64,000 nucleotides of DNA from the NCBI GenBank assembly GCA_017480745.1, contig JAFUSA010000008.1, forward strand, positions 86,090-150,089, read 5' to 3'. Below, piece by piece: positions 9,129 through 57,687 of the stretch. The translations under genes and the position numbers were made by a program. Each line of letters begins with the position of its first letter. Position 1 is the first letter of the stretch. The notes beneath the pieces were generated by a model. The model saw nothing but the letters and a program-made list of their open reading frames with translations. It searched no databases and had not been told where the DNA came from. This stretch comes from Alphaproteobacteria bacterium (GTDB lineage Bacteria > Pseudomonadota > Alphaproteobacteria > RF32 > CAG-239).

Positions 9129-9244
9129 ACAGTTTTACAGCATCTGTTACAAATTTCAGCGGATAAAATAATTCATTGTTTGCCTTTTGCAAAAAAATAA
9201 GAGATAAATAGTAACAGATATTTTAACAAGGTAAGGATTTGATT

Positions 9245-15516: not shown

Positions 15517-15552
15517 AGTAAACTTCCTTTCGTATGAATTGTTGATATTACA

Positions 15553-17369: not shown

Positions 17370-17993
17370 TTACTTAACTTCTCCGCTGAGGGAGCTATCT
17401 GCGAAAAACATGATGACGGTATCATATCTATTAGTGCACATATTTACCGCTCCCTCCACACTAACCGGAACTTTTAAATCGTGCAAAGCTCCATCATCAT
17501 CACTGATAGTGATTATATTTATATTTGCTACTGTCCAGTCATAAGTTAATAGTTCAATACAAACTTCATCAGGAATATCATAATAGGCTATACTGAATGC
17601 TTTATTATCTTCCTCTTCTGCTAAACTAACCCCACCACCGAAAGGATTGGTAATAGAGGTGATTTTACCAGCCGCATTAATGGTAATCATTTCATCAGGG
17701 AATATTTTGGCTTTTTTAACTATCGGACAGCCATCACCGGAAGATTGCCCATAGCAACCGGCACTATTGCAATAACAACGCACCCCGATATAATTCTTCT
17801 GTGGTCCCCAAAAGGCATGCACATTTCCGGCAATGAGGGTTATTTGCTCAATGGTTTTATTGATTCTGTGTTTCATCATTGCTTTGCTATATCCGGCAAT
17901 TCCACCAACAGATAATACGCCGATTATGGCGAGCACTCCTAACATTTCTATCATTGAACGACCATTTTGATATTTAATTTCAAAGTTTCTCAT
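17370..17993 (-). CDS. Prepilin-like protein, paralog 2
   Basis: MRNFEIKYQNG|RSMIEMLGVLAIIGVLSVGGIAGYSKAMMKHRINKTIEQITLIAGNVHAFW...VCIELLTYDW. Confidence 0.8.
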   Translation of the reverse strand: MRNFEIKYQNGRSMIEMLGVLAIIGVLSVGGIAGYSKAMMKHRINKTIEQITLIAGNVHAFWGPQKNYIGVRCYCNSAGCYGQSSGDGCPIVKKAKIFPDEMITINAAGKITSITNPFGGGVSLAEEEDNKAFSIAYYDIPDEVCIELLTYDWTVANINIITISDDDGALHDLKVPVSVEGAVNMCTNRYDTVIMFFADSSLSGEVK

Positions 17994-18028
17994 AATCTTA
18001 TCTCCTAAATCATAGAGGTTAATACATT

Positions 18029-18260
18029 AAAAAAACTAACCGCCAAACGGCGGTCGGGAGAGGTAGAAAATCATATTAGTTGAAATGATTTCTGTGATCT
18101 TTAGACAATAGCCCTGTACATCCACCACAGACTCCCCAACCCACGTCGGAGATATTTCACATTCAATAACGATGTCAAAAACACCGCAACTAATAAGAGC
18201 TTTCTACAGCTCCGAACCGAAGTTCTAAGTTTATATTATCACAAAAAATCTAAAAGTCAA
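18029..18260 (-). promoter_or_regulatory. Class B structured leader of pilin paralog 2
   Basis: Minus strand: TTGACT (18260-18255), 16-nt spacer, TGaTAATAT. gaac-ttcg-gttc hairpin, atatctccgacgtgggttggggag, ctgtg..cacag, ctctcccgaccgccgtttggcggt + T-run. Confidence 0.75.
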
Positions 18261-18347
18261 AATATTTTTATCAGTATTTTTAACATTTTATTGAGTATTT
18301 TATTTTATAATGTCAGCCATTGCAAAACAGTATTTTTGAGGGAATTG

Positions 18348-21083
18348 ATGGCTAAGAAAAAAATAATAGAAGAAAAAAAAACACCGTGGTGGAAAACCGC
18401 TTTATGCAATATTTTCGGTATATTTTTTATTGTTTTTCCGTTGCTTGTTTATGCCGGATTGTCAGATTATCATGCGTCCGATCCCTCGTTTAATAAAGTT
18501 ACATCCGAAGAGGTGCAAAATTTTCTTGGGAAATTCGGTGCGTATAGCGCAGATTTTGTGTTAAGCTCATTTGGATTATCTTTGATTATCTTTTTGTTGG
18601 TGCCGATTTTTTGGGGTATCGGACTATTGAAATTTAAAAGCTTCAGCGAATATAAAAGCCGTATTTTTGCGTGGATTGTTGGTGTTTTATGTCTTGCCTG
18701 CTTTATTGATGTTGCTTGCAGTTCTTACATTGCAAGTCTGAACTTGCCGCATAATCTGACCGGAGATTGGAGTCATATAATCAGCCGATGGCTCAATAAT
18801 TATATCAATCAGGTTTCATTCCCTTATAATTCATTGATTATAAAATCTATAATTTTGTTTGTCAGTTTTTTGGCTTTCAATTTTTCTTCCGGCATAACAT
18901 TTAGTGTATGGGTAAAAATGTTTGGCAAAATAGGCGGTTTTTGCAAATCCGTTTACGCCGTATGTGTAAAAATATTCAAAAAAGCTGCCAATATTCGCAA
19001 CTTCAACGAGTTTCAAGAGCTAAATCCGCGCTATTTGCAAGAGAAGATAAAAAATAATTCTGCGCAAAAACATCAGAATGAACCAAAATTTGAAGAACAT
19101 GAAATCAATTTTGCTCCCAGTCTCAATGCTTCATCTTCACACAACATCAGTGTCACTCCGTTAACCGATGCGCTATTAGCACCAAGCATGAGTCTTAATT
19201 CTCAACCGACAAAATCCGCTTCTGTTTCCGGTTTAACCATAGAAATTCCGCAGTTCAATAATTCCGTTAATGATGTTTCTTCTCTAAACATAAACAAAAA
19301 TTCGTTAAATACCGAGCAAAACATTTTGACTCCTACTTTTGATTTTATGATTGATAGTGTAGAGGAAAATCCGTTGCCTAAAAAAGCAGAGAGCAAAGCC
19401 ACCACAAATAATATTTATCAAATTGACGGAGTTAAGAAATTTGTCAGCAAAATGCGCTCAAAAAATAAATCTGCCGATACAGCACAACAAGATGATTTAT
19501 TAACCGTTCCGACCTCGGCAACTGCTCCGCAGAAACCGTTGCAGGCACAGGTTGCTTTTAATGATTCGACAGCGATAGAAAAAAGCAAAGATGAATATGT
19601 TTTTCCGGATATTAATTTGCTTTCTGTTCCGCAAAATAAGGAAATTGAAATTGACGAAGAAGTATTAAAGAAAAATGCCGCACAGTTAGAACAGGTTTTG
19701 CAAGACTTTGGCATTCGCGGACAAATAGTTAAAGTTCGTCCCGGTCCGGTGGTTACACTTTATGAACTTGAACCGGCTCCGGGAATCCGCACAGCCAGAG
19801 TTATCGGTCTTTCAGATGATATAGCGCGTTCTATGGCGGTTGCTTCGGTGCGTATGGCGGTTGTTAGCGGACAAAAGACAATAGGTATTGAATTGCCTAA
19901 CTCGATTCGCCAAACTGTCGGCTTGCGAGAGCTTTTAGAAAGTAAAGATTTCAGAAACAGTAAAAATATTTTAAATGTTGCATTAGGTAAAGATATCGGT
20001 GGGCAGTATGTTTATGCAGATTTAGCCGGAATGCCGCATTTGTTGGTTGCCGGAACAACCGGTTCAGGTAAGTCGGTTGGTGTTAACTCAATGATTTTAT
20101 CTCTTCTTTACCGAATGACACCGGAGCAATGCAAATTTATTATGATTGACCCGAAATGCGTTGAGTTTTCTATGTATAATGGTATACCACATCTGCTTAC
20201 GCCGGTAATTACCGATCCGGCAAAGGCGGTGGTTGGCTTAAAATGGGCAGTGCAGGAAATGGAAAGCCGCAACCGTTCGTTGGCGCTGTTAAATGTGCGC
20301 AATATAAGCGGATATAACCGAAAAATTGAAGAAATCGCAAAATCTTCCAAAGAATTTAAAAAGACTATTCAAACCGGCTTTGACAAGGAAACAGGTAATC
20401 CTATTTATGAAGAACAGGTTATTGATACAACCCCAATGCCATACATAGTGATTGTGGTTGATGAAATGGCAGATTTAATGTTAGTTGCCGGAAAAGAGGT
20501 TGAAGCGGCAATTCAACGTTTGGCTCAAATGGGACGTGCGGTGGGTATTCACTTGATTATGGCCACACAACGTCCGTCGGTTGACGTTATTACCGGTGTG
20601 ATTAAAGCCAACTTCCCAAGCCGCATAAGCTTTCATGTGACTAACAAATTTGACAGCACAACCATTATCGGTGAAAAAGGAGCAGAACAATTGCTTGGAC
20701 GTGGTGATATGTTGTTTGTAGCCTCGGGAGATAAGCCACGGCGTGTTCACGGTTGTTTTGTGCCGGATGATGAAGTGGAAAAAATTGTTGAATTCATCAA
20801 AAAACAGGGTGAGCCTAAATATGTGGCAGAAGTTACTGCCGGTGAACTCAACAGTAAAGATTCCGGTCCGGTATTTGACAAAGGAGAAATGGGAGATGCC
20901 GGAGAAGATCTATATAGGCAAGCGGTGGACATTGTGCGCACAGATAAAAAAGCTTCCACCAGTTATGTTCAACGTAAACTGCGTATAGGATATAATCGTG
21001 CCGCAAACCTGATCGAACGTATGGAAGATGAAGGAATTGTCAGTCATCCGGATCATGTCGGTCGCCGTGAAGTCATCGGATAA
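18348..21083 (+). CDS. ftsK: DNA translocase FtsK
   Basis: N-terminal TM domain, low-complexity linker, motor domain with GTTGSGKSVGVN Walker A, and a C-terminal gamma (winged-helix) domain YVQRKLRIGYNRAANLIE. Confidence 0.95.
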   Translation: MAKKKIIEEKKTPWWKTALCNIFGIFFIVFPLLVYAGLSDYHASDPSFNKVTSEEVQNFLGKFGAYSADFVLSSFGLSLIIFLLVPIFWGIGLLKFKSFSEYKSRIFAWIVGVLCLACFIDVACSSYIASLNLPHNLTGDWSHIISRWLNNYINQVSFPYNSLIIKSIILFVSFLAFNFSSGITFSVWVKMFGKIGGFCKSVYAVCVKIFKKAANIRNFNEFQELNPRYLQEKIKNNSAQKHQNEPKFEEHEINFAPSLNASSSHNISVTPLTDALLAPSMSLNSQPTKSASVSGLTIEIPQFNNSVNDVSSLNINKNSLNTEQNILTPTFDFMIDSVEENPLPKKAESKATTNNIYQIDGVKKFVSKMRSKNKSADTAQQDDLLTVPTSATAPQKPLQAQVAFNDSTAIEKSKDEYVFPDINLLSVPQNKEIEIDEEVLKKNAAQLEQVLQDFGIRGQIVKVRPGPVVTLYELEPAPGIRTARVIGLSDDIARSMAVASVRMAVVSGQKTIGIELPNSIRQTVGLRELLESKDFRNSKNILNVALGKDIGGQYVYADLAGMPHLLVAGTTGSGKSVGVNSMILSLLYRMTPEQCKFIMIDPKCVEFSMYNGIPHLLTPVITDPAKAVVGLKWAVQEMESRNRSLALLNVRNISGYNRKIEEIAKSSKEFKKTIQTGFDKETGNPIYEEQVIDTTPMPYIVIVVDEMADLMLVAGKEVEAAIQRLAQMGRAVGIHLIMATQRPSVDVITGVIKANFPSRISFHVTNKFDSTTIIGEKGAEQLLGRGDMLFVASGDKPRRVHGCFVPDDEVEKIVEFIKKQGEPKYVAEVTAGELNSKDSGPVFDKGEMGDAGEDLYRQAVDIVRTDKKASTSYVQRKLRIGYNRAANLIERMEDEGIVSHPDHVGRREVIG

Positions 21084-21121
21084 GCCGAACAATCCTTTTT
21101 TTATAAAAACTGTTTGAATAA

Positions 21122-21186
21122 GTTACACTATTTAACCTAAAATAGCTATGAACTTCCGGCCGCCTCAGTGGGCGGTTGTTTTTATA
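21122..21186 (+). terminator. Terminator after ftsK, made from a 3' fragment of a class A leader
   Basis: cactatttaacctaaaatag + gaacttccggccgcctcagtgggcggttgttttt matches the last hairpin, third segment and terminator of class A leaders. Confidence 0.7.
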
Positions 21187-24921: not shown

Positions 24922-25671
24922 CTAATAAAATTTCAGAAGTAAAGCATTTTGATCGGCTTTTCCGTCAGCCGTTCCACAAACAGCGGCAGCATTGGCAGCA
25001 GTCATCGGACCTTTACCTCCGCAAGCAACACCCTCACCAACCGTACATGTTGTCACGGCAGTTTTAGCAAAATCGGTAACCGTTCCAGATGTTGCAGCTT
25101 TAGGTGTACAACCATTTTTCGGATTACCTTGAGCGTCTTTACAATCGTCTCCAGCATCTGCACCTGCCAATTCACCAGCAATTATTTTAGCCTGAATTAA
25201 ACCTGAACCGGAAGCTGAGCCCCAATCCTGAGTTGCCAAATCCATACATGCTTCTTCCGGAATATTATCAAAAACCAATACAAAAGATTTAGCATCACCG
25301 CAACCGGTGCAAGTACCGGTTTCTGTGGTGCTGCTGCGTGCACCCGCTTGCAGATAAATGTTTCCACCAAATGGATTGCCATTAGCTATTATTCCATCAC
25401 TTGTAATCAACTCATCCGGAAATAACTTTGCTTTGGCAATCAAACTTCCGTTTGTTGCGGCACCCAAAGCCTTGTAATTCTTTTGGCTACCGAACAGGGT
25501 GCGCACGTTGGTTACAATCATTGAAATTTGTTCAATAGTTTTATTAGTGCGATATTTCATCATCGCTTTGGAATAACCGGCAATACCACCAACGCTCAAC
25601 ACGCCGATAATTGCCAATACGCCGAGCATTTCAATCATGGAACGACCGGATTCGATATTGTGTGTTTTCAT
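24922..25671 (-). CDS. Prepilin-like protein, paralog 3 (divergent Cys/Gly/Ala-rich C-terminal half)
   Basis: Start trimmed to ATG 25671 behind gaaggag: MKTHNIESG|RSMIEMLGVLAIIGVLSVGGIAGYSKAMMKYRTNKTIEQISMIVTNVRTLF...EACMDLATQDW. Confidence 0.8.
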   Translation of the reverse strand: MKTHNIESGRSMIEMLGVLAIIGVLSVGGIAGYSKAMMKYRTNKTIEQISMIVTNVRTLFGSQKNYKALGAATNGSLIAKAKLFPDELITSDGIIANGNPFGGNIYLQAGARSSTTETGTCTGCGDAKSFVLVFDNIPEEACMDLATQDWGSASGSGLIQAKIIAGELAGADAGDDCKDAQGNPKNGCTPKAATSGTVTDFAKTAVTTCTVGEGVACGGKGPMTAANAAAVCGTADGKADQNALLLKFY

Positions 25672-25714
25672 TTTTAAATCTCCTTCTCGAAAAAAAATAT
25701 ATGTTATTAATACT

Positions 25715-25940
25715 AATTTTGACCGCCACTGGCGGTCGGAGAGTTTACAAATCATACCACATCAATGATCCTGCTAATCTTTAGGTAAACTACCCTGAAC
25801 ATCCACTAACAGCTCCCCGACCAAATCGGAGATATATCATCTGTCAACGACGTTTTTTCCACGTCGAATGCGGTATGAGCTTGTAAAGGCTCTGAACCGA
25901 AGTTCTGAATTTATGATAACATAAAAAATGAAAAAGTCAA
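25715..25940 (-). promoter_or_regulatory. Class B structured leader of pilin paralog 3
   Basis: Minus strand: TTGACT (25940-25935), 16-nt spacer, TGtTATCAT. gaac-ttcg-gttc, cgacgt..acgtcg, tctccgatttggtcggggag, ctgttag..ttagcag, ctctccgaccgccagtggcggtc. The U-tract after the last hairpin is poor in this copy. Confidence 0.7.
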
Positions 25941-27082: not shown

Positions 27083-27772
27083 TTAACATCCATCAGGTAA
27101 TGAACAGCGATTTAGTTCTTTTTGCCAATAGGTGGAACTTTGCTGGATATCAAATAAAAAACTTATAGTTACCTGATCAAGATCAGAACAAACATTTATG
27201 GCATCATCAATGGCTATCGGAGGCAATAGATAATACTCCGGTTCTTCTCCATTTGTCTTTATGTTATAAGCATATATAATAGAAGCAAGACTAAGTGATG
27301 TCCAATCTTGTGTCAGCAATTCAATACAAACTTCTTCATTATGTGTAAACAATCCTATTCTAAAAGCCTTCTCATCTCCCTCGCTTATCTTATCCGCAGC
27401 TGCCAGAGCAACACCATCTCCCCAAACATCTTTAATGTAATTATAATCACCATCCCACATTTCATCGGGCACAAGTTTGGCTTTTTTAATAACCTTTTTA
27501 TCATCCAATCCAGCATAGTTTCCTTGCGGAGCAAAAAACGAGCGTATGTTTCCGGCAATGAGAGTTATTTGTTCAATGGTTTTGTTGATCCTATACTTAG
27601 TCATCGCCTTTGAATATCCGGCGATTCCGCCAACAGAAAGCACGCCGATGATGGCAAGAACGCCTAACATCTCTATCATAGAGCGACCGCATTGCGTGGC
27701 AAAGCGACACTTATAGTCATGCCTGTGCATGTTAATAATTTCTTTGATACTTTTTATATCTAAGTTTTTCAT
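27083..27772 (-). CDS. Prepilin-like protein, paralog 4 (29-aa presequence)
   Basis: MKNLDIKSIKEIINMHRHDYKCRFATQCG|RSMIEMLGVLAIIGVLSVGGIAGYSKAMTKYRINKTIEQITLIAGNIRSFF...VCIELLTQDW. Confidence 0.8.
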   Translation of the reverse strand: MKNLDIKSIKEIINMHRHDYKCRFATQCGRSMIEMLGVLAIIGVLSVGGIAGYSKAMTKYRINKTIEQITLIAGNIRSFFAPQGNYAGLDDKKVIKKAKLVPDEMWDGDYNYIKDVWGDGVALAAADKISEGDEKAFRIGLFTHNEEVCIELLTQDWTSLSLASIIYAYNIKTNGEEPEYYLLPPIAIDDAINVCSDLDQVTISFLFDIQQSSTYWQKELNRCSLPDGC

Positions 27773-27810
27773 AGTATACTTCCTTTCATTTTTGTTGTTG
27801 ATATTACACT

Positions 27811-28017
27811 AAAACAACCGCCCGATAAGGCGGCCGGAAGTTCGAAACTACTTCTACATAAATAGTGTCATGTATTAAAAAAACTATCTATTCCATGACC
27901 TTCCAGCCAATGCCGGAAATATTAACGCCATTTACAGCGATGTAGAAAGAGGTTTCGACACCTCAGACAAGTTACCTCATCTTGTTTTTATGATAGCATA
28001 AAAAAACTAAAAGTCAA
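27811..28017 (-). promoter_or_regulatory. Class A structured leader of pilin paralog 4
   Basis: Minus strand: TTGACT (28017-28012), 16-nt spacer, TGcTATCAT. All class A blocks present. The gtcatg/catgac stem carries a double compensatory change. Confidence 0.75.
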
Positions 28018-30559: not shown

Positions 30560-30764
30560 TTGACATAAGGGATTTTTTGGTTTAATATGATCCTCATGAT
30601 GAGGTAAAAATCATCTGGGGTCTCTAAGCCTCTTTAAACCCGTCTTTGTAGACGTAATTTTTCCAGCTTGGCTGGAAGGTCGTGGAATAGTTAATGAATG
30701 AATACGCGACACTGTTTGGTTTAAATAGTTTAGAGCTTCCAGCCACCTCTCGGAGGTGGTTTTA
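30560..30764 (+). promoter_or_regulatory. Class A structured leader of pilin paralog 5
   Basis: TTGACA 30560-30565, 17-nt spacer, TAATAT 30583-30588. The three repeated segments all carry ccagc/gctgg instead of ccggc/gccgg. Terminator ccacctc-tcg-gaggtgg + tttt. Confidence 0.75.
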
Positions 30765-30797
30765 ATGTAATTTTAATTAAGTGAAAGGAAGTTTACT

Positions 30798-31430
30798 ATG
30801 AGAAACTTAGAAATTAAAAATCAAAATGGCCGTAGTATGATAGAGATGCTTGGCGTGCTTGCCATAATCGGCGTGCTTTCTGTGGGCGGAATTGCCGGAT
30901 ACAGCAAAGCAATGCAAAAGTATAAAATCAATAAAACCATTGAACAAATAACTCTCATTGCCGGTAATATACGTGCTTTCTTTGCTAATCAACCCGAAGG
31001 AACTAAATACACGGATTTATATTCCGAAGGCGAAAAAGCACAAATACTAAAAAAAGCGAGGTTAATTCCTGATGAAATGTGGAATGGATCTAAAATAGAA
31101 AATATTTTTGGAGGTGCGACATACATTAGTTATTTGGGTACATCTGGTAATATTGATTATAGAAGTTTTCTCATTAATTTAGGAAACATACCACAAGAAG
31201 CTTGTATTGAACTTTTAACACATGATTGGAGCGCATCAGGAGTATATGTTATGGGTAATGTGAGTGCATTAGCTTATGGTGCTAAGGCAAGTCATGATAA
31301 TTGCGAAACAAAGGAAATTATGAGTGGACCTTATTCGTTTGGCTATACATATTGTGGTACATCAATGCCCATGGAAACAGCAATAGAATTTTGTAAGGAG
31401 GTAACAGATTTTTATTTAGGATTCCATTAA
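30798..31430 (+). CDS. Prepilin-like protein, paralog 5
   Basis: MRNLEIKNQNG|RSMIEMLGVLAIIGVLSVGGIAGYSKAMQKYKINKTIEQITLIAGNIRAFF...EACIELLTHDW. Confidence 0.8.
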   Translation: MRNLEIKNQNGRSMIEMLGVLAIIGVLSVGGIAGYSKAMQKYKINKTIEQITLIAGNIRAFFANQPEGTKYTDLYSEGEKAQILKKARLIPDEMWNGSKIENIFGGATYISYLGTSGNIDYRSFLINLGNIPQEACIELLTHDWSASGVYVMGNVSALAYGAKASHDNCETKEIMSGPYSFGYTYCGTSMPMETAIEFCKEVTDFYLGFH

Positions 31431-35236: not shown

Positions 35237-35980
35237 TTATCTGAAATAAAAGTGTAATTCAGCGTCATCAGAACAAGTGCTTGCGGCTTTATCAACGCTT
35301 ATCGGTAATGTTTTGTTGTAAATACAGCCAACATTATCATCATCCCAATAATCTCCCGTTACACAATCAAACATTACAGCACTGTCATCTTCATTTATTG
35401 CCAGAGCTATTAAATCGCTGACAGACCAATCATGTGTGGATAGTTCAATACAGGCTTCTTGCGGTAAACCATAAAGGGTTATCTTATAGCCCGTCACTGT
35501 TTTACTTCCGTTGCTGCCCCAATAATCGTAAATATAAACCGCACCACCAAAAGCATTGGTTATATTCGTGATATTACCGTCGGAATCTAATGTCAGCATT
35601 TCATCGGGTACAAGTTTGGCTTTTTTGATAATTGCTTTTCCTGTATCAGAATACGAAGATAATCCGTCATAATTTCCTTGCGGGCCGAAGAATGCCCGAA
35701 CATTACCGGCGATTAAAGTTATTTGCTCAATAGTTTTATTGATGCGATACTTTTGCATTGCCTTTGAATATCCGGCGATTCCGCCAACAGATAACACGCC
35801 GATGATGGCAAGAACACCAAGCATTTCTATCATTGAGCGACCATTCTGTCCGCCCTCAACATTTTGCACTTCTTTTGAGTTAAACAAAGCATTGCAATAA
35901 ATATTCTGCGGAGCGAACGAATGTTCGCGACCTGATGCGTTAGCATCACAAATAGTTTGTTTGAAATTACAATTTCCCAT
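35237..35980 (-). CDS. Prepilin-like protein, paralog 6 (46-aa presequence)
   Basis: MGNCNFKQTICDANASGREHSFAPQNIYCNALFNSKEVQNVEGGQNG|RSMIEMLGVLAIIGVLSVGGIAGYSKAMQKYRINKTIEQITLIAGNVRAFF...EACIELSTHDW. Confidence 0.78.
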   Translation of the reverse strand: MGNCNFKQTICDANASGREHSFAPQNIYCNALFNSKEVQNVEGGQNGRSMIEMLGVLAIIGVLSVGGIAGYSKAMQKYRINKTIEQITLIAGNVRAFFGPQGNYDGLSSYSDTGKAIIKKAKLVPDEMLTLDSDGNITNITNAFGGAVYIYDYWGSNGSKTVTGYKITLYGLPQEACIELSTHDWSVSDLIALAINEDDSAVMFDCVTGDYWDDDNVGCIYNKTLPISVDKAASTCSDDAELHFYFR

Positions 35981-36015
35981 AGTAAACTTTCTTTCATTTT
36001 TGTTGATATTACACT

Positions 36016-36222
36016 AAAACAACCGCCCGATAAGGCGGCCGGAAGTTCGTAACTACTGCAATTAATAGTGTCGCATATTCAACCCATAGTCTTATTCTGC
36101 GACCTTCCGGCCACAAAGCCGGAAATTTTTACGTCTTTAAGACGAATTGCAAGAGGTTACGACACCTCAGACAAGTTACCTCATCTTGATTTTATGATAG
36201 CATAACAAAAACTGAAAGTCAA
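36016..36222 (-). promoter_or_regulatory. Class A structured leader of pilin paralog 6
   Basis: Minus strand: TTGACT (36222-36217), 17-nt spacer, TATCAT (36199-36194). Canonical class A blocks. Terminator ggccgccttatcgggcggttgtttt. Confidence 0.75.
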
Positions 36223-36301: not shown

Positions 36302-36531
36302 TTGACATTTTAAAATTTTGTGATATAGTAATCACAGAACTACGGTTCGGGGCTTTCATCGGCTCTCATTACGCTTGGTGTGTAAAAAACACTATCATAA
36401 GGTATGTAATATCTCCGATTGGGTCGGGGAGACTGCAATGGATGTTCAGAGCTTTTGCTTAAAGATTGTAGTGATTATTAGCGTAATGTAATTGATGAAC
36501 TCCCCTGCCGCCGTTTGGCGGTTAAATTTTT
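36302..36531 (+). promoter_or_regulatory. Class B structured leader of pilin paralog 7
   Basis: TTGACA 36302-36307, 16-nt spacer, TGaTATAGT (-10 at 36324-36329). gaac-tacg-gttc, atatctccgattgggtcggggag, ctgcaa..ttgtag, actcccctgccgccgtttggcggt + T-run. Confidence 0.75.
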
Positions 36532-36565
36532 AATGTGTTAACCTTTAATTTTAGGAGATAAAATT

Positions 36566-37213
36566 ATGATAAACTATAATAATGAAAACGGTCGTTCGAT
36601 GATAGAGATGCTGGGCGTATTAGCTATCATTGGTGTTTTAAGTGTTGGTGGTATCGCTGGATATACCAAGGCGATGATGAAATACAGAATCAATAAAACC
36701 ATCGAGCAAATTACTCTTATTGCCGGCAATGTGAGAACGTTTTTCGCAAATCAAAAAACAATTTCATTAAGATTTAATAAAGATGGTCCACAGGATGAAG
36801 CAAGTGAAAAAATTGTCAGAAAGGCAAGGTTAGTGCCGGAAGAAATGATGTATTTGAATGGTGATGGCGAAATAGTGTATCTTGTAAGTACGTTTGGTGA
36901 ACGTTTTTTTGTAATAGGAAGTCCATCAAGCAAGTTCTTTTCCTTATATTTTTATAATCTTCCACAGGAGGCTTGTATTGAATTGTTATCGCATGATTGG
37001 AATAACGCTAATGCTTCTGCAATTAGTGTTAATGGCGGTGAATATCTTACTTTTTTTCTTCCAGTAAACGTGGATGATGCCGTGAAAGCCTGTGATTACA
37101 TCAACCGTAGCCTCGATAGTAATGGTGATTATAATGTATCGATATTATTTGACTACACCGGAGATATGACGGATGCTGTAAATGAAACAAAAGAAATATT
37201 GAGCAAATTATAA
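36566..37213 (+). CDS. Prepilin-like protein, paralog 7
   Basis: MINYNNENG|RSMIEMLGVLAIIGVLSVGGIAGYTKAMMKYRINKTIEQITLIAGNVRTFF...EACIELLSHDW. Confidence 0.8.
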   Translation: MINYNNENGRSMIEMLGVLAIIGVLSVGGIAGYTKAMMKYRINKTIEQITLIAGNVRTFFANQKTISLRFNKDGPQDEASEKIVRKARLVPEEMMYLNGDGEIVYLVSTFGERFFVIGSPSSKFFSLYFYNLPQEACIELLSHDWNNANASAISVNGGEYLTFFLPVNVDDAVKACDYINRSLDSNGDYNVSILFDYTGDMTDAVNETKEILSKL

Positions 37214-42050: not shown

Positions 42051-42257
42051 TTGACTTTTGAGCTTTTTATGATATAGTAAAAGCAAGATGAGGTAACTTG
42101 TCTGAGGTGTCAGAACCTCTTGCAATTCGTCTTAAAGACGTAAAAATTTCCGGCTTTGTGGCCGGAAGGTCGTGGAATAAAACTATAGGTTGAATATGCG
42201 GCACTATTAATTGCAGTAGTTCTGAACTTCCGGCCGCCCTTATCGGGTGGTTGTTTT
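42051..42257 (+). promoter_or_regulatory. Class A structured leader of pilin paralog 8 (reference copy)
   Basis: TTGACT 42051-42056, 16-nt spacer, TGaTATAGT (-10 at 42073-42078). Segment 1 ttccggc 42148-42154, segment 2 gccggaagg 42161-42169, segment 3 cttccggcc 42227-42235. Terminator cggccgccc/gggtggttg + tttt to 42257. Confidence 0.78.
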
Positions 42258-42292
42258 AGTGTAATATCAACAAAAATGAAAGGAAGTTTACT

Positions 42293-42970
42293 ATGAAAAA
42301 CTTAGAAATAAAAAATCAAAACGGTCGTTCAATGATAGAGATGTTAGGTGTTCTTGCCATCATCGGTGTTTTGAGTGTCGGTGGAATCGCCGGATATTCC
42401 AAAGCTATGCAAAAATATAGAATTAACAAAACCATTGAGCAAATAACACTTATTACCGGAAACGTTCGCTCATTTTTTGCCAGTCAAGGAAATTATAGGG
42501 GATTAAGTTCAACTAATACAGGAAAAGCGATTATCAAAAAAGCTAAACTTGTACCTGATGAAATGTTAGAGCTCAATGCCGATGGTACCATAAAGCAAAT
42601 TAACAACTCTTTCGGCGGAACGGTTTTGATTGAAGCTGCTAATAAATCAAGTTCAGCTAATGGAAGTGAGCCTATATACATTTATGGTGATGAAAAAGCT
42701 TTTGCTTTATCTTTCAGCGATATTCCGCAGGAGGCCTGTATTGAATTGGTAACACAAGATTGGAGCGAGGCCAACATCGGAGCCCTCCAAAAAGGAGGTT
42801 TTATTCCTACTAAGAATAATGTAATTTTTACACCGGCAAGCATCGATATCGCCACGAATATGTGTGGTTCTACAAATGAAATATCTTTTTTTGCTGATGT
42901 TGATACTAATTCCACTTATTGGAAAGGTCTTTTGGGTGATGAAAAGTTGGTGGGTACTATCGGTAATTAG
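42293..42970 (+). CDS. Prepilin-like protein, paralog 8
   Basis: MKNLEIKNQNG|RSMIEMLGVLAIIGVLSVGGIAGYSKAMQKYRINKTIEQITLITGNVRSFF...EACIELVTQDW...NMCG. Confidence 0.8.
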   Translation: MKNLEIKNQNGRSMIEMLGVLAIIGVLSVGGIAGYSKAMQKYRINKTIEQITLITGNVRSFFASQGNYRGLSSTNTGKAIIKKAKLVPDEMLELNADGTIKQINNSFGGTVLIEAANKSSSANGSEPIYIYGDEKAFALSFSDIPQEACIELVTQDWSEANIGALQKGGFIPTKNNVIFTPASIDIATNMCGSTNEISFFADVDTNSTYWKGLLGDEKLVGTIGN

Positions 42971-47754: not shown

Positions 47755-48348
47755 ATGGAAAAAGACGAATTACAGAATTTTTTAATTAACATAGGGCGCT
47801 CTATGGTGCAGGAAAACGGCACAGATGCGCTGACAGTGCGCAAATTGTCCGAAGCTTCCAAATGCTCGGTCGGCGCCATATATAACCAGTTTTCCAATAT
47901 GGATAACTATATCGTGATCCAAAATTGCATAACTCTTGATGAGTTACACGCTGCTTTAAGCAAAGTGCAACGTTCCAACAACGTGTTCATCGATATGAAT
48001 AATTATTTGCAGACTTTTGTTGACTATGTTTTGGATAATAAAAATTTATGGTATATGCTTTATACCTTTCACTTGAAACATAATAAATATCGCTATTCAT
48101 CATTTTATTTGCGCAAAATAATAAAAATTGTGCGTATTGTTAATGAGCTGCTAAAAGATGCCACTCCGCGAGTTGAAAGACCTGAACGTCTGCTTTCGGC
48201 TCAGGTTTTATGGCTGACAATGTTTTCACTCAGCGCCTTGCTCACTAAGGATATTTTAGACTCTTTTTCCAAAATCAATCGCCGCAATTTGTGTGAAATT
48301 GTTTTGAATACTTTTGTTGCCGGTATGACTGTGCTGGAAAATAGGTAA
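47755..48348 (+). CDS. TetR-family transcriptional regulator
   Basis: N-terminal HTH: GTDALTVRKLSEASKCSVGAIYNQF. Confidence 0.8.
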   Translation: MEKDELQNFLINIGRSMVQENGTDALTVRKLSEASKCSVGAIYNQFSNMDNYIVIQNCITLDELHAALSKVQRSNNVFIDMNNYLQTFVDYVLDNKNLWYMLYTFHLKHNKYRYSSFYLRKIIKIVRIVNELLKDATPRVERPERLLSAQVLWLTMFSLSALLTKDILDSFSKINRRNLCEIVLNTFVAGMTVLENR

Positions 48349-48360
48349 TTTTTAAACAAA

Positions 48361-48546
48361 GCGCTCGCCGACGTGTTGAAAGCTACCTAATAGAATAGTG
48401 TCGCATATTATACAATTTATTCTGCGACCTTCCGACCATTGTCGGAAACATTTTACGTCCTGTCTGACGCTATTAGAGAGGCTTTCAAACCTCAGACAAG
48501 TTACCTCATCTTACTTAGATACTATCACAAAAAATGTAAAAGTCAA
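48361..48546 (-). ncRNA. Orphan class A leader-like RNA with promoter but no downstream gene
   Basis: Minus strand: TTGACT (48546-48541), 16-nt spacer, TGaTAGTAT. Then gatgaggtaacttgtctgaggtttgaaagcctc, cgtc..gacg, tttccgacaatggtcggaagg, gtcgca..tgcgac, cactatt. The 3' part diverges and runs into the convergent tetR stop. Confidence 0.6.
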
Positions 48547-50859: not shown

Positions 50860-51651
50860 TTAATACCACGTTACTCCCAGATCAGCGGCTTCCTTCTTAT
50901 AAAAACTTTCATCTGCATCAAAAAATAAAGATACACTTGTACTAATTACATCATCTTCAGGATCGACGTACGCATATGAACATATGTTGACAGCATTATC
51001 AATAGATATTGGTAAAGAAAAACTTGCTTTATCTATAGTTTGCAAGTTATTTACCGAAATAAAACTGACATTTGCGTTAGTCCAGTCATGTGTTAAAAGT
51101 TCTATACAAGCTTCTACGTTATTTCCTATGTCATACGTAACATCAAATGCTTGATCTTCACTATTAAATGATTTATAATTTGCATTTAATACAACTTTTC
51201 CACCAAAAACATTTTCCAAAGCCGTTTTGTCACTATTCCACATTTCATCAGGGACTAATTTAGCTTTGTGTATTATTTTTCTGCCATTAGTTTCATTGCT
51301 ATTCAATCCTTTATAATTCCTCTGCGGAGCAAAAAATGTTCGCACATTGCCGGCAATTAAAGTTATTTGCTCAATAGTTTTGTTGATGCGATATTTGGTC
51401 ATTGCTTTGCTGTATCCGGCGATTCCGCCAACCGAAAGAACGCCAATAATTGCCAACACGCCAAGCATTTCAATCATTGAACGTCCGCTCTGCGTGGCAA
51501 AACCACACTTATAGTCATGCCTCGATTCCGCAGGAATCGTCAAGTCATCTTCTGCTTGATTAAAATTAATTTGAAGATCCCTTGACGCATTCGCCTTTGC
51601 AAGGCTCTGCGAGGGATGACTTTTTATATTTTTTATTTTTAAGTTATTCAT
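50860..51651 (-). CDS. Prepilin-like protein, paralog 9 (56-aa presequence)
   Basis: MNNLKIKNIKSHPSQSLAKANASRDLQINFNQAEDDLTIPAESRHDYKCGFATQSG|RSMIEMLGVLAIIGVLSVGGIAGYSKAMTKYRINKTIEQITLIAGNVRTFF...EACIELLTHDW. Confidence 0.78.
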   Translation of the reverse strand: MNNLKIKNIKSHPSQSLAKANASRDLQINFNQAEDDLTIPAESRHDYKCGFATQSGRSMIEMLGVLAIIGVLSVGGIAGYSKAMTKYRINKTIEQITLIAGNVRTFFAPQRNYKGLNSNETNGRKIIHKAKLVPDEMWNSDKTALENVFGGKVVLNANYKSFNSEDQAFDVTYDIGNNVEACIELLTHDWTNANVSFISVNNLQTIDKASFSLPISIDNAVNICSYAYVDPEDDVISTSVSLFFDADESFYKKEAADLGVTWY

Positions 51652-51689
51652 AGTAAACTTCCTTTCATCTGAATTGTTGATATTACATT

Positions 51690-51895
51690 AAAACAACCGC
51701 CCGATAAAGGCGGCCGGAAGTTGACGACTATTTAAGATTAGATAGTGTGGCTTATTTGGTTCACCCTTATTCAACCACCTTCCAGCCATACTGGAAAATT
51801 TTTACGTCTTCAAAGACGACTTCAAAGAGGTTTTCAGACCTCAGACAAGTTACCTTATCTTGTTTTCACTATATCATAAAAAACGCAAAAGTCAA
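51690..51895 (-). promoter_or_regulatory. Class A structured leader of pilin paralog 9
   Basis: Minus strand: TTGACT (51895-51890), 16-nt spacer, TGaTATAGT. The gtggtt/aagccac stem is compensatory relative to gtcgca/tgcgac. Terminator ggccgcctttatcgggcggttgtttt. Confidence 0.75.
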
Positions 51896-56550: not shown

Positions 56551-57420
56551 CTACTTAAAACCCAATATAATCTCGCAAGTATCTTCTGTGCACGAACATG
56601 CGGCAACAGCTTTTTCCAGTGGAAGCGGCAAAGTATTTCCCGCTGGACAAAAATACCTATCATCTTCCGCGGTACAATCATTATCCGCGACATTAGCCAT
56701 ATCTCCGTCCAACGTTTCATTGATATACATACCTACAACATTTGCGGCTTGCCAATCATGACTGGCTATCTCAATACAGGCTTCTGCCGGTAAATATGCT
56801 ATGCTTATGCCAAAAGCTGTAAAACCATTAGTTACATTCTCCGATAATACAACCCCACCACCGAAGGGATTGGTAATAGCGGTAATTTTTTTACCGGTAG
56901 AATCAAGAGTAATCATTTCATCCGGTAATATCTTGGCTTTTTTTATTATCGGACAGCCATTGACAGTAGAAGTAGGATAGCCGCTGCTGCTAACACCGCC
57001 ATCACTTCCCTTACATCCGTTGGTTGCATTGCAGGTATAACCACTACAATTAACCCCGATATAGTTCTTCTGTGGTCCCCAGAAAGCACGCACATTGCCG
57101 GCAATTAATGTTATTTGCTCAATAGTTTTATTGATGCGATACTTTTGCATTGCCTTACTATATCCGGCTATTCCGCCAACGCTTAATACGCCGATTATAG
57201 CCAGTACGCCTAACATCTCGATCATTGAACGACCAGACTGCGGCGCATCTGCACCACTCTCCGCAAGAGGTGAACATCCACTCTGTTCACTTTTTGCATC
57301 AAGCACTTCTTTTGCAGTTAAAAACGTATTGCAACAAATATTCCATGGAGCGGATGAAAATCCGCGACCCGGCGCACCAGCGCCGTTAATGTTTTGTTTA
57401 GAATTTATATTTCTCATCAT
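56551..57420 (-). CDS. Prepilin-like protein, paralog 10 (63-aa presequence)
   Basis: MMRNINSKQNINGAGAPGRGFSSAPWNICCNTFLTAKEVLDAKSEQSGCSPLAESGADAPQSG|RSMIEMLGVLAIIGVLSVGGIAGYSKAMQKYRINKTIEQITLIAGNVRAFW...EACIEIASHDW. Confidence 0.78.
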   Translation of the reverse strand: MMRNINSKQNINGAGAPGRGFSSAPWNICCNTFLTAKEVLDAKSEQSGCSPLAESGADAPQSGRSMIEMLGVLAIIGVLSVGGIAGYSKAMQKYRINKTIEQITLIAGNVRAFWGPQKNYIGVNCSGYTCNATNGCKGSDGGVSSSGYPTSTVNGCPIIKKAKILPDEMITLDSTGKKITAITNPFGGGVVLSENVTNGFTAFGISIAYLPAEACIEIASHDWQAANVVGMYINETLDGDMANVADNDCTAEDDRYFCPAGNTLPLPLEKAVAACSCTEDTCEIILGFK

Positions 57421-57449
57421 TTTATCTCCTCTATTTGATAGGTTTAATT

Positions 57450-57687
57450 AAAAATCAAAGGCCACCAAACGGTGGCAGGGGAGTTTACAAATCATAGAGT
57501 TTAAAATGATCCGCGCAATTTTTAGGCACAAACCCTGAACATTTACCACGCGCTCCCCGACCAAGTCGGAGATATTCATCATATCTTTAACGATGTTAAA
57601 AAAATTAACACCGTAAACTCTAAGAGCTTGTAAAGGCCCTGAACCGAAGTTCTGTTTCTATAATATCATAGAATTTTAAAAAGTCAA
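57450..57687 (-). promoter_or_regulatory. Class B structured leader of pilin paralog 10
   Basis: Minus strand: TTGACT (57687-57682), 16-nt spacer, TGaTATTAT. gaac-ttcg-gttc, tgttaa..ttaaca, atatctccgacttggtcggggag, gcgcg..tgcgc, actcccctgccaccgtttggtggc + T-run. Confidence 0.75.

Follow-up and report, generated by a model that had tools for sequence, protein, structure and literature searches.

Complementarity between a switching strand and the Shine-Dalgarno sequence suggests that a transcription-stopping leader RNA of alphaproteobacterial surface-protein genes can probably also block translation

Structured leaders of the type IVb pilin paralogs

The window, that is the whole 64-kb stretch of DNA that was analysed, contains 11 full leaders and a short variant. 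Of the genes behind the full leaders, ten are paralogs coding for type IVb pilins and one is of another kind. Each full leader is about 200 nt long and runs from a promoter through a structured RNA and an intrinsic terminator to a Shine-Dalgarno (SD) sequence. The leaders of the window belong to two classes, A and B. Leaders of a third class, C, which was found in this analysis, were sought in the window and are absent.

The gene at 42293–42970 (forward strand) is one of the ten pilin-like paralogs. Its N-terminus, G/RSMIEMLGVLAIIGVLS, shows the prepilin pattern G/xxxxE followed by a hydrophobic helix that characterizes type IV pilins, and this N-terminus is present in 10 of 10 paralogs. PilS_N (6.7e-10) and Bundlin (1.4e-7) were both above the Pfam cut-off in the 42293 protein, while N_methyl with 17.9 bits remained under its cut-off of 21.2.

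Among the other class A leaders, the one at 3326–3481 (forward strand; R1 score 152 bits) precedes a non-pilin ORF (3516–3791). The remaining ones precede pilin paralogs and were localized together with their ribosome binding sites (RBS) at 15514–15713 (reverse strand; leader 15557–15713, RBS 15514–15531, start 15516), 27770–27967 (reverse; leader 27811–27967, RBS 27770–27787, start 27772), 30614–30800 (forward; leader 30614–30766, RBS 30783–30800, start 30798), 35978–36171 (reverse; leader 36016–36171, degraded RBS AGAAAG at 35978–35995, start 35980) and 51649–51845 (reverse; leader 51690–51845, RBS 51649–51666, start 51651). Class B leaders with their pilin paralogs are located at 17991–18218 (reverse; leader 18029–18218, RBS UUAGGAGAUAAG, start 17993), 25669–25898 (reverse; leader 25712–25898, start 25671), 36344–36568 (forward; leader 36344–36532, RBS UUAGGAGAUAAA, start 36566) and 57418–57645 (reverse; leader 57451–57645, RBS AGAGGAGAUAAA, start 57420). 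The short variant, with aaggagaaa, is at 8940–9135 on the reverse strand.

An earlier, sequence-only reading of the window had listed the RBS strings of both classes, and all of them are found as it gave them. The class A string GAAAGGAAGTnTACTATG occurs 6 times in the window as compared to 0.18 expected. Each class A pilin has one such string, accompanied by AGAAAG in the case of the 35980 copy; for class B, ttaggagataa, gaaggagattt and agaggagataaa are present, as is aaggagaaa in the short variant.

Architecture of the leader of the 42293 pilin gene

Two alternative folds are predicted for the leader RNA. Fold 1 consists of a long-range helix and a hairpin between segments 1 and 2 (seg1:seg2), which leaves the 3′ part of segment 3 (seg3) free to complete the terminator. 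Fold 2 consists of a local 5′ hairpin and a seg2:seg3 helix closing a three-way junction. All features of the 42293 leader described here lie on the forward strand, and the pairing percentages are those of class A.

A sigma-70-type promoter is located at 42051–42078 (TTGACT, a 16-nt spacer and the extended −10 element TGnTATAGT; 10 of 12 matches, TG present), and transcription probably starts at about 42085. The same promoter can be aligned across all paralog leaders of the window. A 5′ hairpin, AGAUGAG-GUAA-CUUGUCU (42086–42103), is seen in the minimum free energy (MFE) folds; as read from the sequences of the homologs, its sequence is variable and its pairing is kept, and class B carries GAAC-UUCG-GUUC in the same place. 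The 5′ strand of the long-range helix of fold 1, GAGGU-G-UCAGAAC-CUC-UUGCAAUU (42104–42127), belongs to a helix that the sequence-only reading did not describe. GAGGU (42104–42108) changes its partner between the folds, from ACUUC of seg3 in fold 1 to ACCUC (42115–42119), with which it makes the local hairpin of fold 2. Hairpin H3, CGUCU-UAA-AGACG (42128–42140), is common to both folds (helix 5; 94% paired, compensatory changes in 4 of 4 pairs).

Seg1, UUUCCGGCU (42147–42155), is the predicted anti-antiterminator strand and pairs with seg2 in fold 1 (helix 7; 92% paired, compensatory changes in 5 of 8 pairs). Seg2, GGCCGGAAGG (42160–42169), is a purine strand, an SD mimic in the sequence-only reading, whose partner is seg1 in fold 1 and seg3 in fold 2, where it forms the predicted antiterminator (99% paired, compensatory changes at three positions). 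Hairpin H5 (42169–42202) with its conserved internal loop GAAUA/AAUA is present in both folds (helix 8; 98% paired, 6 of 6 pairs compensatory). Covariation and pairing counts define ACUAU-loop-GUAGU, which is hairpin H6 in fold 2, and the spacer GUUCUGA (together 42203–42225); in fold 1 the long-range helix takes its 3′ strand from the H6 loop and this spacer.

Seg3, the switching strand AACTTCCGGCC (AACUUCCGGCC; 42225–42235), is shared between several predicted partners: seg2 binds CUUCCGGCC in fold 2, the 5′ GAGGU binds ACUUC in fold 1, the terminator stem takes in GGCC, and AACUUCC is the putative anti-SD. AACUUCC is present in 92 of the 122 class A matches listed. The intrinsic terminator, CGGCCGCCC-UUAUC-GGGUGGUUG followed by UUUU (42231–42257; helix 11), has counterparts in 102 of 109 class A leaders listed. 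The RBS and start codon, GAAAGGAAGUUUACUAUG, occupy 42278–42295, with the SD GGAAGTTTA at 42282–42290 and the ATG at 42293. This SD (GGAAGUUUA) is complementary to UGAACUUCC at 42223–42231 with 9 bp possible (−10.4 kcal/mol), and when the tail of the leader is folded alone, AACUUCC pairs with GGAAGUU around the terminator (−19.5 kcal/mol).

The leaders form an undescribed superfamily

The leaders are a large, undescribed superfamily of at least three classes which is absent from Rfam. At least about 300 homologous leaders are present in metagenome-assembled genomes (MAGs) of gut and rumen Alphaproteobacteria, some of which carry more than 20 copies; at least about 100 instances were recovered for each of the classes A, B and C, all scans being given as the matches listed. 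A cmscan of the whole window against Rfam 15 (4227 models including riboswitches, T-box, PyrR, ANTAR and c-di-GMP-I/II) gave two tRNAs only at the gathering score, and with the leaders searched at E<=10 or E<=1 no family's gathering threshold was reached. A literature search on pilin leaders of RF32 Alphaproteobacteria found nothing.

The genes behind the leaders code for pilins, fimbrial-like proteins, outer-membrane proteins, lipoproteins, glycosyltransferases and small HTH regulators, with the start codons predicted by a simple rule. The leaders are not pilin-specific: among those listed, a pilin is downstream in only 48 of 112 in class A and in 8 of 106 in class B. These downstream functions, surface proteins and regulators, point to no metabolite. 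Seg3 reads AACUUCC in class A, CUCYCC in class B and AGCUCC in class C. The class B segments given in the sequence-only reading are correct for the window (seg1 ATCTCC, seg2 GGGGAG, seg3 CTCTCC/CTCCCC), but seg1 does not generalize, being mostly AUCCCC and not AUCUCC in the homologs.

Two alternative folds are conserved

Covariation across the aligned sequences shows that the two folds are both conserved and are mutually exclusive. In class A, 91.6% of the cells of fold 1 are paired and 43 of 51 pairs show compensatory changes, as compared to about 40% paired in slid controls; the helices of fold 2 are 96.6% paired with 13 of 18 pairs compensatory. The corresponding figures for class B are 94.5% with 50 of 54 and 94.9% with 12 of 17, and the class B polymorphism CUCUCC/CUCCCC covaries with the 5′ element. 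The long-range helix has z<−2 in 98% of 108 leaders listed, and its helices 1–3 are 97–99% paired with at least 4 pair types per column in class A, where the local 5′ hairpin of fold 2 is 93% paired. The two folds are only 3–6 kcal/mol apart in five of the window's class A copies, as long as the terminator has not been made. The leaders thus have the hallmarks by which riboswitches are generally recognized, namely a conserved, structured 5′ UTR domain with covariation and a platform of predicted exclusive structures, seg1:seg2 versus seg2:seg3 versus terminator, together with SD:seg3 pairing.

SD type follows leader class

The co-variation of leader class with SD, first noticed by eye in the window, is borne out in at least about 300 leaders of three classes, each with its matched SD. 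GGAAG is found in about 45–51% of class A SDs (44.7% of 103 leaders listed), as compared to 2.9% in class B and 2.4% of 628 background genes taken from the contigs of these leaders (p=4e-31), and GGAGA in 56.7% of the class B leaders listed versus 5.8% of class A (p=3e-16); these p-values overstate independence because homologous leaders share descent. GGAG[CU]U is present in 79.6% of class C leaders listed versus 4.7% in class A and 4.5% in class B. With one unit per protein family per class, the association of SD type with class has a Fisher p of 0.0013. About a quarter of the class A SDs, including that of the window copy at 3516, are without GGRRG, and counter-examples with a variant seg3 and an unmatched SD exist (L210, L224 and L028/L222).

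A search for duplexes between the whole leader and the SD gave a class effect of only about 1 kcal/mol because A-rich SD flanks meet U-rich loops by chance, and it was replaced by duplexes restricted to seg3. These have a mean of −6.8 (class A) and −6.6 (class B) kcal/mol with the leader's own SD versus −4.7 and −5.2 kcal/mol with the SD of the other class (p=1e-16 and 2e-9). When the own SD is compared with another SD of the same class, the difference is not or hardly significant (p=0.2 and p=0.05). For classes A and B the match thus holds at class level only, seg3 being nearly invariant; in class B the complementarity is limited to 4–5 bp, and the seg3 polymorphism CUCUCC/CUCCCC has no clear association with the SD variant.

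In classes A and B, single leaders and their SDs show no covariation over and above class membership. This is what would be expected if leader and SD, 40–60 nt apart, were duplicated or recombined as one module; each class would then have inherited its SD from its founder, and the complementarity of seg3 would be a functionless by-product of purine- and pyrimidine-rich helices. In the same direction point the region past the terminator, which is common in its full length to the paralogs of the window, the membership of most class C genes (71 of the 93 listed) in one protein family, and the low equilibrium occupancy of SD:seg3 in the class A copies of the window (see below). We nevertheless consider this explanation unlikely. 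Between terminator and SD, both the sequence and the length of the spacer have diverged (seg3 end to start codon mostly 43–90 nt), yet unrelated genes retain the SD of the class. One A-to-G change would suffice to give the commoner and stronger GGAGG, yet GGAAG is maintained at 45% against the background of 2.4%. Within single protein families the SD type tracks the leader class: among the pilins, GGRRG is present in 28 of 35 class A leaders and GGAGA in none, while behind class B leaders GGAGA is present in 4 of 8 and GGRRG in none. Shared descent also does not account for a class C base pair which covaries with no A.C in 10 cases, or for terminator-less variants which set the SD directly opposite seg3; both are described in the following section.

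Evidence for direct pairing of seg3 with the SD

Covariation in class C, terminator-less variants and the lack of complementarity of the covarying SD position to 16S rRNA together argue for a direct pairing of seg3 with the SD. Among the class C matches listed, leaders with seg3 AGCUCC have the SD GGAGC in 54 and GGAGU in 23 cases, and leaders with AACUCC have GGAGU in 10 and GGAGC in 0 (p=2.3e-5). Between seg3 position −1 and SD position +5 the combinations G-C, G.U and A-U occur and A.C never does; on distinct rows the counts are GC 37, GU 15, AU 7 and other 3. In full-length MFE folds of class C, AGCUCC is paired with GGAGCU, with a mean P of 0.62 and P >0.5 in 66% of leaders. Extension of this class C helix past 6 bp is not apparent, the outer two positions being paired in only 37% and 65% of distinct rows. 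In the leaders L124, L169 and L193, which have no terminator, seg3 CUUCCU is predicted to fold directly onto AGGGAG as a simple hairpin. The leaders therefore contain both elements of an SD-sequestering platform, an anti-SD complementary to the SD and an alternative pairing of this strand to the putative sensing domain.

In tail-only folds with seg3 free, the own SD is paired to seg3 in 70% (class A) and 65% (class B), and an SD swapped in from the other class in 36% and 42%. In full-length folds at equilibrium, the 5′ GAGGU is a competitor for seg3, and SD:seg3 pairing in class A is therefore 0.26 on average and 0.00–0.14 in 6 of the 7 copies of the window; the 51651 copy is the sole class A copy of the window with SD:seg3 paired in the full-length fold (P=0.90). 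The 35980 copy with its degraded RBS has a seg3:SD duplex of merely −3.8 kcal/mol. In class B, the 25671 copy has a terminator-like hairpin without a U-tract, and its SD pairs as AAGGAGAUUUA:UAAACUCUCC with P=1.00 in the full-length fold.

Both the repeated segments 1 and 3 had been proposed as anti-SD elements of their own gene. For seg3 this proposal is supported by the three matched classes, the class C covariation and the terminator-less variants. For seg1 it is not, as seg1 has no class-specific complementarity in class A (p=0.2); moreover, seg1 is free in the ON fold and hiding of the SD by seg1 would therefore oppose expression. That the RBS may be hidden when seg3 is not bound by seg2, in addition to termination control, has gained comparative evidence.

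The same reading had considered an involvement of the ribosome or the 16S 3′ end in sensing. In such a scheme, 30S subunits would be drawn to SD-like elements of the leader, and the choice of SD would be adapted to this contact. Seg2 (GGAAGG, GGGGAG) and the 5′ element (GAGGU, GGAG) are indeed SD-like, and seg3 ACUUCC is one base off the 16S anti-SD ACCUCC. However, the class-specific SD positions, which match seg3 (UU after GGAAG; C/U after GGAG, as in CU), are exactly those that lack complementarity to the assumed alphaproteobacterial 16S tail, where G would be needed, and the predicted affinity of the SDs for this assumed tail is equal in classes A (−8.3) and B (−8.0). Seg2 and the 5′ element are also fully accounted for as strands of covarying helices, and we regard sensing through the ribosome as very improbable.

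It is also conceivable that the seg3:SD helix is real and has another role, such as stabilizing the terminator hairpin or the 5′ region of the mRNA, or guiding processing. The helix is stacked onto the terminator hairpin, in class C onto the long-range helix as well, and a SAM-II riboswitch of an alphaproteobacterium has dual, even opposite, effects on stability and translation (PMC9373788). Against such a role, which seems to us quite improbable, the pairing spans the core of the SD itself in all three classes and persists in variants that have no terminator to stabilize. Occlusion of the SD is its simplest consequence.

A putative switch acting on transcription and translation

Based on the alignments and on nearest-neighbour folding models, we consider it likely that seg3 is a class-matched anti-SD within a dual transcription/translation expression platform of a structured 5′-leader RNA switch. 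When seg2 is locked by seg1, seg3 would be free and the terminator would form; in transcripts that escape termination, seg3 would pair with the SD around the terminator hairpin and block 30S binding. When seg2 captures seg3, the terminator would be disrupted and the SD released together. Fold 2 would withdraw GGCC from the terminator stem and transcription would therefore read through, and since the capture would act on terminator and SD at once, transcription and translation could both be set by one strand exchange. Where the terminator is missing, the seg3:SD hairpin would be left as the sole expression platform. The pyrimidine core of seg3 is complementary to the SD of the gene behind it, as AACUUCC to GGAAGUU in class A, UCUCC or CUCC to GGAGA in class B and AGCUCC to GGAGCU in class C. 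Since this complementarity of seg3 and SD holds across the classes, the switch probably has the capacity to block translation as well as to stop transcription.

An action in trans is conceivable, as seg3 is identical within a class and any leader fits any SD of the same class equally, the own SD about as well as another. Terminated leaders with a free AACUUCC-type strand could be class-specific anti-SD small RNAs; equally, one class-specific protein or small RNA could recognize a purine motif common to seg2 and the SD, which do resemble each other. The many copies per genome (11 full leaders and the short variant in 64 kb; more than 20 in some MAGs) are compatible with this, and terminated riboswitch transcripts that act in trans are known from Listeria (SreA/SreB). 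On the other hand, the flanks of the SD match seg3 and not seg2 (class A, SD GGAAGUU versus seg2 GGAAGGY; class C, SD GGAGCU versus seg2 GGGGAGU), which disfavours a factor reading the same motif, and a hairpin in cis would be kinetically favoured and is the only option that explains variants such as L169. We therefore hold trans action or a shared factor to be rather improbable, although trans action might come on top of an action in cis, and prefer pairing of seg3 with its own SD. Equally doubtful is the idea that the seg3/SD complementarity is a class code, in which each class is a separate regulatory channel for dozens of surface-protein genes and terminated leaders (seg3 with the terminator hairpin) are anti-SD small RNAs acting in trans on every mRNA of the same class. 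If true, paralogs would be coupled, for example with most pilin variants silent while one is expressed, and riboswitch-like leaders would make up a cross-talk network of RNA only.

With the preferred reading, a dual switch in cis, what was first seen by eye becomes a mechanism open to testing, by which uncultured gut and rumen Alphaproteobacteria would govern their surface proteome. Anti-SD and SD that have co-diversified in at least three classes would be a natural example of platforms evolving while matched to their own genes, and the three matched pairs might serve in engineering as switch parts that do not interfere with one another. As three related orphan RNA switches with clear ON/OFF architectures and a defined regulon, the leaders are good candidates for the discovery of a ligand or protein partner.

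Comparison with known regulatory RNAs

Dual transcription/translation platforms are of a known kind, and here one is carried by an undescribed leader superfamily. In the add adenine riboswitch, the 3′ strand of the closing helix has two partners, the aptamer or the SD region, and closing of the helix leaves the SD free. The leaders similarly have a two-partner 3′ strand in the helix that closes the putative sensing domain, and closing would free the SD. Unlike in add, the same strand also overlaps an intrinsic terminator, there is a further anti-antiterminator upstream (seg1) as well as the long-range helix, and neither sequence nor fold relates the two RNAs, the leaders having no Rfam match. 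The add riboswitch of Vibrio vulnificus is a translational ON platform (PMC5847336). The SAM-II metA leader of Sinorhizobium meliloti, also an alphaproteobacterial 5′ leader, combines premature termination and SD sequestration on one gene, and its terminated leaders accumulate as small RNAs (PMC9373788). In that leader the SD lies within the aptamer, a known pseudoknot, whereas in the present leaders it is located 40–60 nt past the terminator and would pair back across it, and the anti-SD/SD match has branched into at least three classes.

T-box leaders use a terminator or an SD-sequestering helix as platform, depending on the lineage. The leaders resemble them in having one conserved putative sensing RNA with interchangeable platforms (SD sequestration only in L124, L169 and L193) and many copies per genome, but there is no match to RF00230, no specifier or T-box sequence, and the downstream genes code for surface proteins and not aminoacyl-tRNA synthetases. 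PyrR-type attenuators contain an anti-antiterminator, an antiterminator and a terminator, and the competition of seg1:seg2, seg2:seg3 and seg3/terminator is of the same three-way type; the leaders differ in the absence of a PyrR binding motif and of an Rfam match, and in the added long-range helix and SD layer. Riboswitches for c-di-GMP precede genes for type IV pilins and surface proteins, for example pilA1 of Clostridioides difficile. They share with the leaders the association with pili, adhesins and surface proteins, the many copies per genome and the terminator-based platform, but the fold is different and there is no GEMM-I or GEMM-II match at the gathering threshold or at E<=10.

The best Rfam match is sRNA-Xcc1 (RF02221), an 88-nt RNA upstream of symE in integron cassettes of Xanthomonas which has been described as a trans-acting sRNA (PMC2996969; bioRxiv 10.1101/2025.06.18.660453). 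The likeness covers the three-way junction from seg2 to seg3, with a P1 helix of purine and pyrimidine runs, a hairpin with AAUA-type internal loops, a second hairpin and a C-rich tail. Membership in sRNA-Xcc1 was rejected, as the similarity recurs but always below the gathering score of 53 (34.3 bits at 42160–42243, 38.5 in L015, 36.1 in L105 and 21 in class C). Here the region is the 3′ part of an mRNA leader of about 200 nt before pilin and surface-protein genes, while sRNA-Xcc1 is without the upstream domain; the window leaders do not lie in an integron cassette or at symE as a free-standing RNA of about 88 nt, and BLAST of the model consensus against plasmids gave no match.

Other modes of control were considered and rejected. 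For leader-peptide attenuation of the trp type, a single recurrent mini-ORF, ATG-AGG-TAA, can be read in the 5′ hairpin, but it is absent in the 51651 copy and in homologs with another hairpin sequence; among longer frames through seg1, reading of the sequences reveals no conserved one, and the region evolves as covarying helices. The RfaH ops-like GGCGGTAG in H5 of the L009–L012 group is taken as chance because the segment covaries as a helix. GGA motifs of the kind recognized by CsrA lie inside covarying stems and not in loops.

Pilin paralogs and their leaders

The segment at 42227-42295 (+) runs from seg3 (CTTCCGGCC), the pyrimidine switching strand of the leader with anti-Shine-Dalgarno (anti-SD) character, to a start codon, with a terminator and an RBS in between. 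The terminator search placed the intrinsic terminator at 42231-42253 (stem-loop, followed by a T-run, +); the RBS is GAAAGGAAGTTTACTATG, with the ATG at 42293 (+), and the sigma-70-type promoter of this leader is located at 42051-42078 (+). The product is a type IVb pilin-like protein with the Pfam domains PilS_N and Bundlin, and its prepilin N-terminus, G|RSMIEMLGVLAIIGVLS, is common to ten paralogs in the window, each of which has its own structured leader and sigma-70-type promoter ~230-260 nt upstream. Class A leaders are present at six of the ten paralogs, with seg1 (anti-antiterminator) UUUCCGGC, seg2 (purine strand) GCCGGAAGG and seg3 CUUCCGGCC, and class B leaders at four, with seg1 AUCUCCGA, seg2 UCGGGGAG and seg3 CUCYCC. 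The class A RBS string occurs 6 times in the window against 0.18 expected, and all that the sequence-only reading had stated on RBS strings and class segments is correct. Ahead of the cleavage motif G|RSMIEML, some paralogs have a prepilin leader peptide of 8-10 aa and others one of ~23-62 aa (pilin starts examined: 35980, 27772, 51651, 57420 and 15516, all on the - strand), a length and variability that are unusual for type IV prepilins.

Two mutually exclusive folds

MFE folding identified a long-range helix that is absent from the sequence-only reading, in which GAGGU-G-UNNNNAAC-CUC-N8, located just after the 5' hairpin, pairs with N8-AUAGUU-NNNN-AACUUC and takes up the 5' half of seg3. Of 108 class A leaders, 98% have this helix, with a mean z of -4.2 versus shuffles. 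Among 122 class A hits, fold 1 (long-range helix, hairpin H3, seg1:seg2, hairpin H5 and terminator) has 91.6% of cells paired compared to ~40% when slid, with compensatory changes in 43 of 51 pairs, and the elements present in fold 2 only (local hairpin GAGGU:ACCUC, seg2:seg3 and hairpin H6) are 96.6% paired, seg2:seg3 reaching 99%, with compensatory changes in 13 of 18. The corresponding values for 115 class B hits are 94.5% and 50/54 for fold 1 and 94.9% and 12/17 for the fold 2 helices. Since fold 2 takes GGCC out of the terminator stem, it is assigned as the antiterminator. Comparison of these leaders shows conservation of the predicted two-fold switch, in which the putative seg2:seg3 antiterminator overlaps the terminator. 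Fold 1 is predicted to be more stable than fold 2 by just 3-6 kcal/mol before the terminator is made (five class A window copies), suggesting that the switch is finely balanced. The RfaH ops core sequence GGCGGTAG is present in the 5' strand of H5 in some class A homologs (L009, L011 and L012) and was judged to be there by chance, as elsewhere among the leaders this strand shows the covariation of a helical RNA stem.

SD type and leader class

Start codons were chosen by a single rule across all gene sets. GGAAG is present in the SD of 44.7% of 103 class A genes (51% of 86 in later scoring), 2.9% of class B (3.4% later) and 0% of class C (a third class, described in the next section), against a background of 2.4% of 628 non-pilin genes; GGAGA is present in 5.8%, 56.7% and 2%, respectively, against 15%; and GGAG[CU]U in 4.7%, 4.5% and 79.6% (74/93). 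The proposal that SD type co-varies with leader class is therefore borne out well outside the window (class A versus class B, GGAAG p=9e-14, GGAGA p=3e-16). Compared to background, GGAAG in class A has an OR of 33 (p=4e-31), and the enrichment persists when the gene downstream of a class A leader is not a pilin (33%). Of the class A SDs, ~73% are GGRRG, a motif that can pair with CUUCC once G.U pairs are counted, and many extend to GGRRGUU, which is complementary to the conserved AACUUCC over its whole length. With each protein family counted once per class, 12 GGRRG and 4 GGAGA remain in class A and 1 and 10 in class B (p=0.0013); within the pilin family only, class A has GGRRG in 28/35 and GGAGA in 0, and class B has GGAGA in 4/8 and GGRRG in 0.

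In duplexes restricted to seg3, class A leaders pair better with their own SD (mean -6.84 kcal/mol) than with class B SDs (-4.67, p=1e-16), and class B leaders likewise (-6.60 against -5.16 for the other class, p=2e-9), while predicted pairing to the assumed alphaproteobacterial 16S tail is equal (A -8.3, B -8.0). By this comparison, the predicted complementarity of seg3 to the SD is class-matched. Seg1, which had also been read as a class-matched anti-SD, has no class-specific complementarity in class A, and class B seg1 is mostly AUCCCC in homologs. As seg3 is almost invariant in classes A and B, the match holds at class level only: the difference between a leader's own SD and another SD of the same class is not significant or barely so. 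The class B polymorphism CUCUCC/CUCCCC tracks the 5' element (GC 65, AU 34 at columns 9/390 of the class B alignment A7) and showed no clear association with the SD. Counter-examples to the match are present, and the p-values overstate independence, because the leaders are kin by descent and 71/93 class C genes form one family.

Class C and probable direct seg3:SD pairing

Class C came to light via weak matches of the class A model to two homologous loci (L128 and L162), and has seg2 GGGGAGU, seg3 (A/G)GCUCC and SD AGGAGCU. A scan with the core pattern, the SD left out, gave >120 loci (a lower bound), with 107 unique leaders, 93 of them with a usable start codon. Class C supplies the decisive test, as comparison shows the putative seg3:SD pairing to covary: leaders with seg3 AGCUCC have SD GGAGC in 54 and GGAGU in 23 cases, and those with AACUCC have GGAGU in 10 and GGAGC in 0 (Fisher p=2.3e-5). 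Over 62 distinct rows, the covarying pair is GC in 37, GU in 15, AU in 7 and other in 3, the pair next to it is AU in 47, GU in 5 and other in 10, and four core pairs are invariant. The helix has 85% of cells paired overall versus 28-52% slid, and the per-pair counts indicate a length of 6 bp, the two outer positions being without consistent pairing. At the covarying SD position 16S complementarity would need G, which argues for seg3, rather than the ribosome, as the source of the constraint. Two complete class C leaders in tandem, each with a promoter-like region and a terminator of its own, precede a single gene at L162 (3572-3924).

Full-length MFE folding of one class C leader places the AGCUCC:GGAGCU pairing around the terminator, and the SD:seg3 probability over the 93 leaders has a mean of 0.62 (>0.5 in 66%); class C is without a 5' competitor strand for seg3. 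The equilibrium SD:seg3 occupancy of full-length class A leaders is low (mean 0.26; window copies 0.00-0.14, but 0.90 for the copy with pilin start 51651) because the SD has a rival for seg3 in the 5' GAGGU. In isolated folds of the tail, seg3 through start codon, which model seg3 free of its upstream partner, 70% of class A leaders and 65% of those of class B had their own SD paired with seg3, compared to 36% and 42% with an SD swapped from the other class (p=1e-9 and 4e-5); for the gene at 42293, AACUUCC pairs with GGAAGUU at -19.5 kcal/mol.

A good terminator is missing from 7/109 class A leaders. L124, L169 and L193 have AGGGAG and the start codon within ~10-25 nt of seg3 CUUCCU, with a predicted simple SD-sequestering hairpin. 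The same fold is predicted for several class B leaders whose U-tracts are poor, including the window copy with pilin start 25671, where the hairpin is followed by AAAAUUAG and the SD AAGGAGAUUUA pairs with UAAACUCUCC (P=1.00 in the full-length fold).

Proposed mechanism and known systems

We propose that when seg1 holds seg2, seg3 would be available and the terminator would form, while in read-through transcripts seg3 would close onto the SD around the terminator hairpin. Capture of seg3 by seg2 would prevent termination and release the SD together. The leaders recall the terminator/SD platform interchange of T-boxes and the three-hairpin topology of PyrR attenuators. The same logic, with an anti-SD expression platform, is used by translational riboswitches such as add (PMC5847336), and the SAM-II metA leader of S. 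meliloti likewise combines a terminator with SD sequestration (PMC9373788). Every Rfam test failed to place the leaders in these known families. In contrast to the known systems, the SD here lies 40-60 nt beyond the terminator and is predicted to pair back across it, classes A and B have a third competitor strand, and a single leader superfamily comprises three or more classes in which anti-SD and SD have diversified together.

Extent of the leader family

Rfam 15 returned two tRNAs and nothing else for the whole window, and no Rfam family reached threshold on the leaders, which are a real and undescribed RNA family. The top match, sRNA-Xcc1 (RF02221; 34-38 bits, under the gathering score of 53), recurs in the seg2...seg3 three-way junction (window 42160-42243; L015 1064-1146; L105 365-447). 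In the literature, sRNA-Xcc1 lies upstream of symE in integron cassettes of Xanthomonas (PMC2996969; bioRxiv 10.1101/2025.06.18.660453). The junction and sRNA-Xcc1 may be distantly related, and in that case Xcc1 might act in cis as a regulator.

Relatives of the pilin family number >560 in MAGs of gut and rumen Alphaproteobacteria, and DNA-pattern scans for the leader cores gave >110 loci each for classes A and B (lower bounds), nearly all in the same lineages. The class A and class B models each weakly detect the other class, suggesting that the classes are homologous. A pilin lies downstream of 48/112 class A and 8/106 class B leaders; the remainder precede fimbrial-like proteins, outer-membrane beta-barrels, lipoproteins, glycosyltransferases, XRE regulators and Cys-rich secreted proteins. 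Among the class C genes (L305-L410), 71/93 encode members of a single protein family (~85 aa; MLNKQIRKKALRQTF...LSIADLSALS...), which by eye was judged HTH-like. With the XRE-type regulators behind class A leaders (L087, L142 and L163), this family suggests that the leader regulon includes transcription factors. Ten rabbit-gut MAG loci (L084, L093, L097, L103, L105, L150, L156, L176, L178 and L188) have a conserved AT-rich stretch of ~170 nt (gaatatgcatcaaaaaaacgtacg...ttgcaacacttttttt...) between the class A leader/terminator and the pilin start, possibly an additional regulatory element or a promoter.

Other leaders and remnants in the window

A seventh class A leader (3326-3481, +; 152 bits with the class A model R1) lies ahead of a non-pilin ORF (3516-3791; 91 aa, no Pfam match) with SD AAGGAAAA, not GGAAG; the leader is thus not pilin-specific even inside the window. 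The short variant of the sequence-only reading corresponds to a class B-like leader at 8940-9135 (-; 50 bits with the class B model R2) of the gene 8108-8942 (-). It retains a 5' hairpin GAACUUUGGUUC, the long-range helix, seg3 CUCCUC, a terminator and SD AAGGAGAAA, and is without the seg1/seg2/H5 domain.

Two leader remnants are also present. At 48355-48520 (-; R1 95.7 bits), a class A-like promoter and the 5' two-thirds of a leader adjoin the 3' end of a convergent TetR-family gene (47755-48348), with unrelated sequence in place of seg3 and terminator; this may be what is left of a decayed leader, or else a stand-alone or antisense RNA. The remnant at 21085-21185 (+) consists of no more than the 3' half of a class A leader (H6, AACUUCC and terminator GGCCGCC...GGGCGGUUGUUUUU), directly past the stop of an FtsK-like ORF (18291-21083) and between convergent genes, and it may be reused as a terminator.
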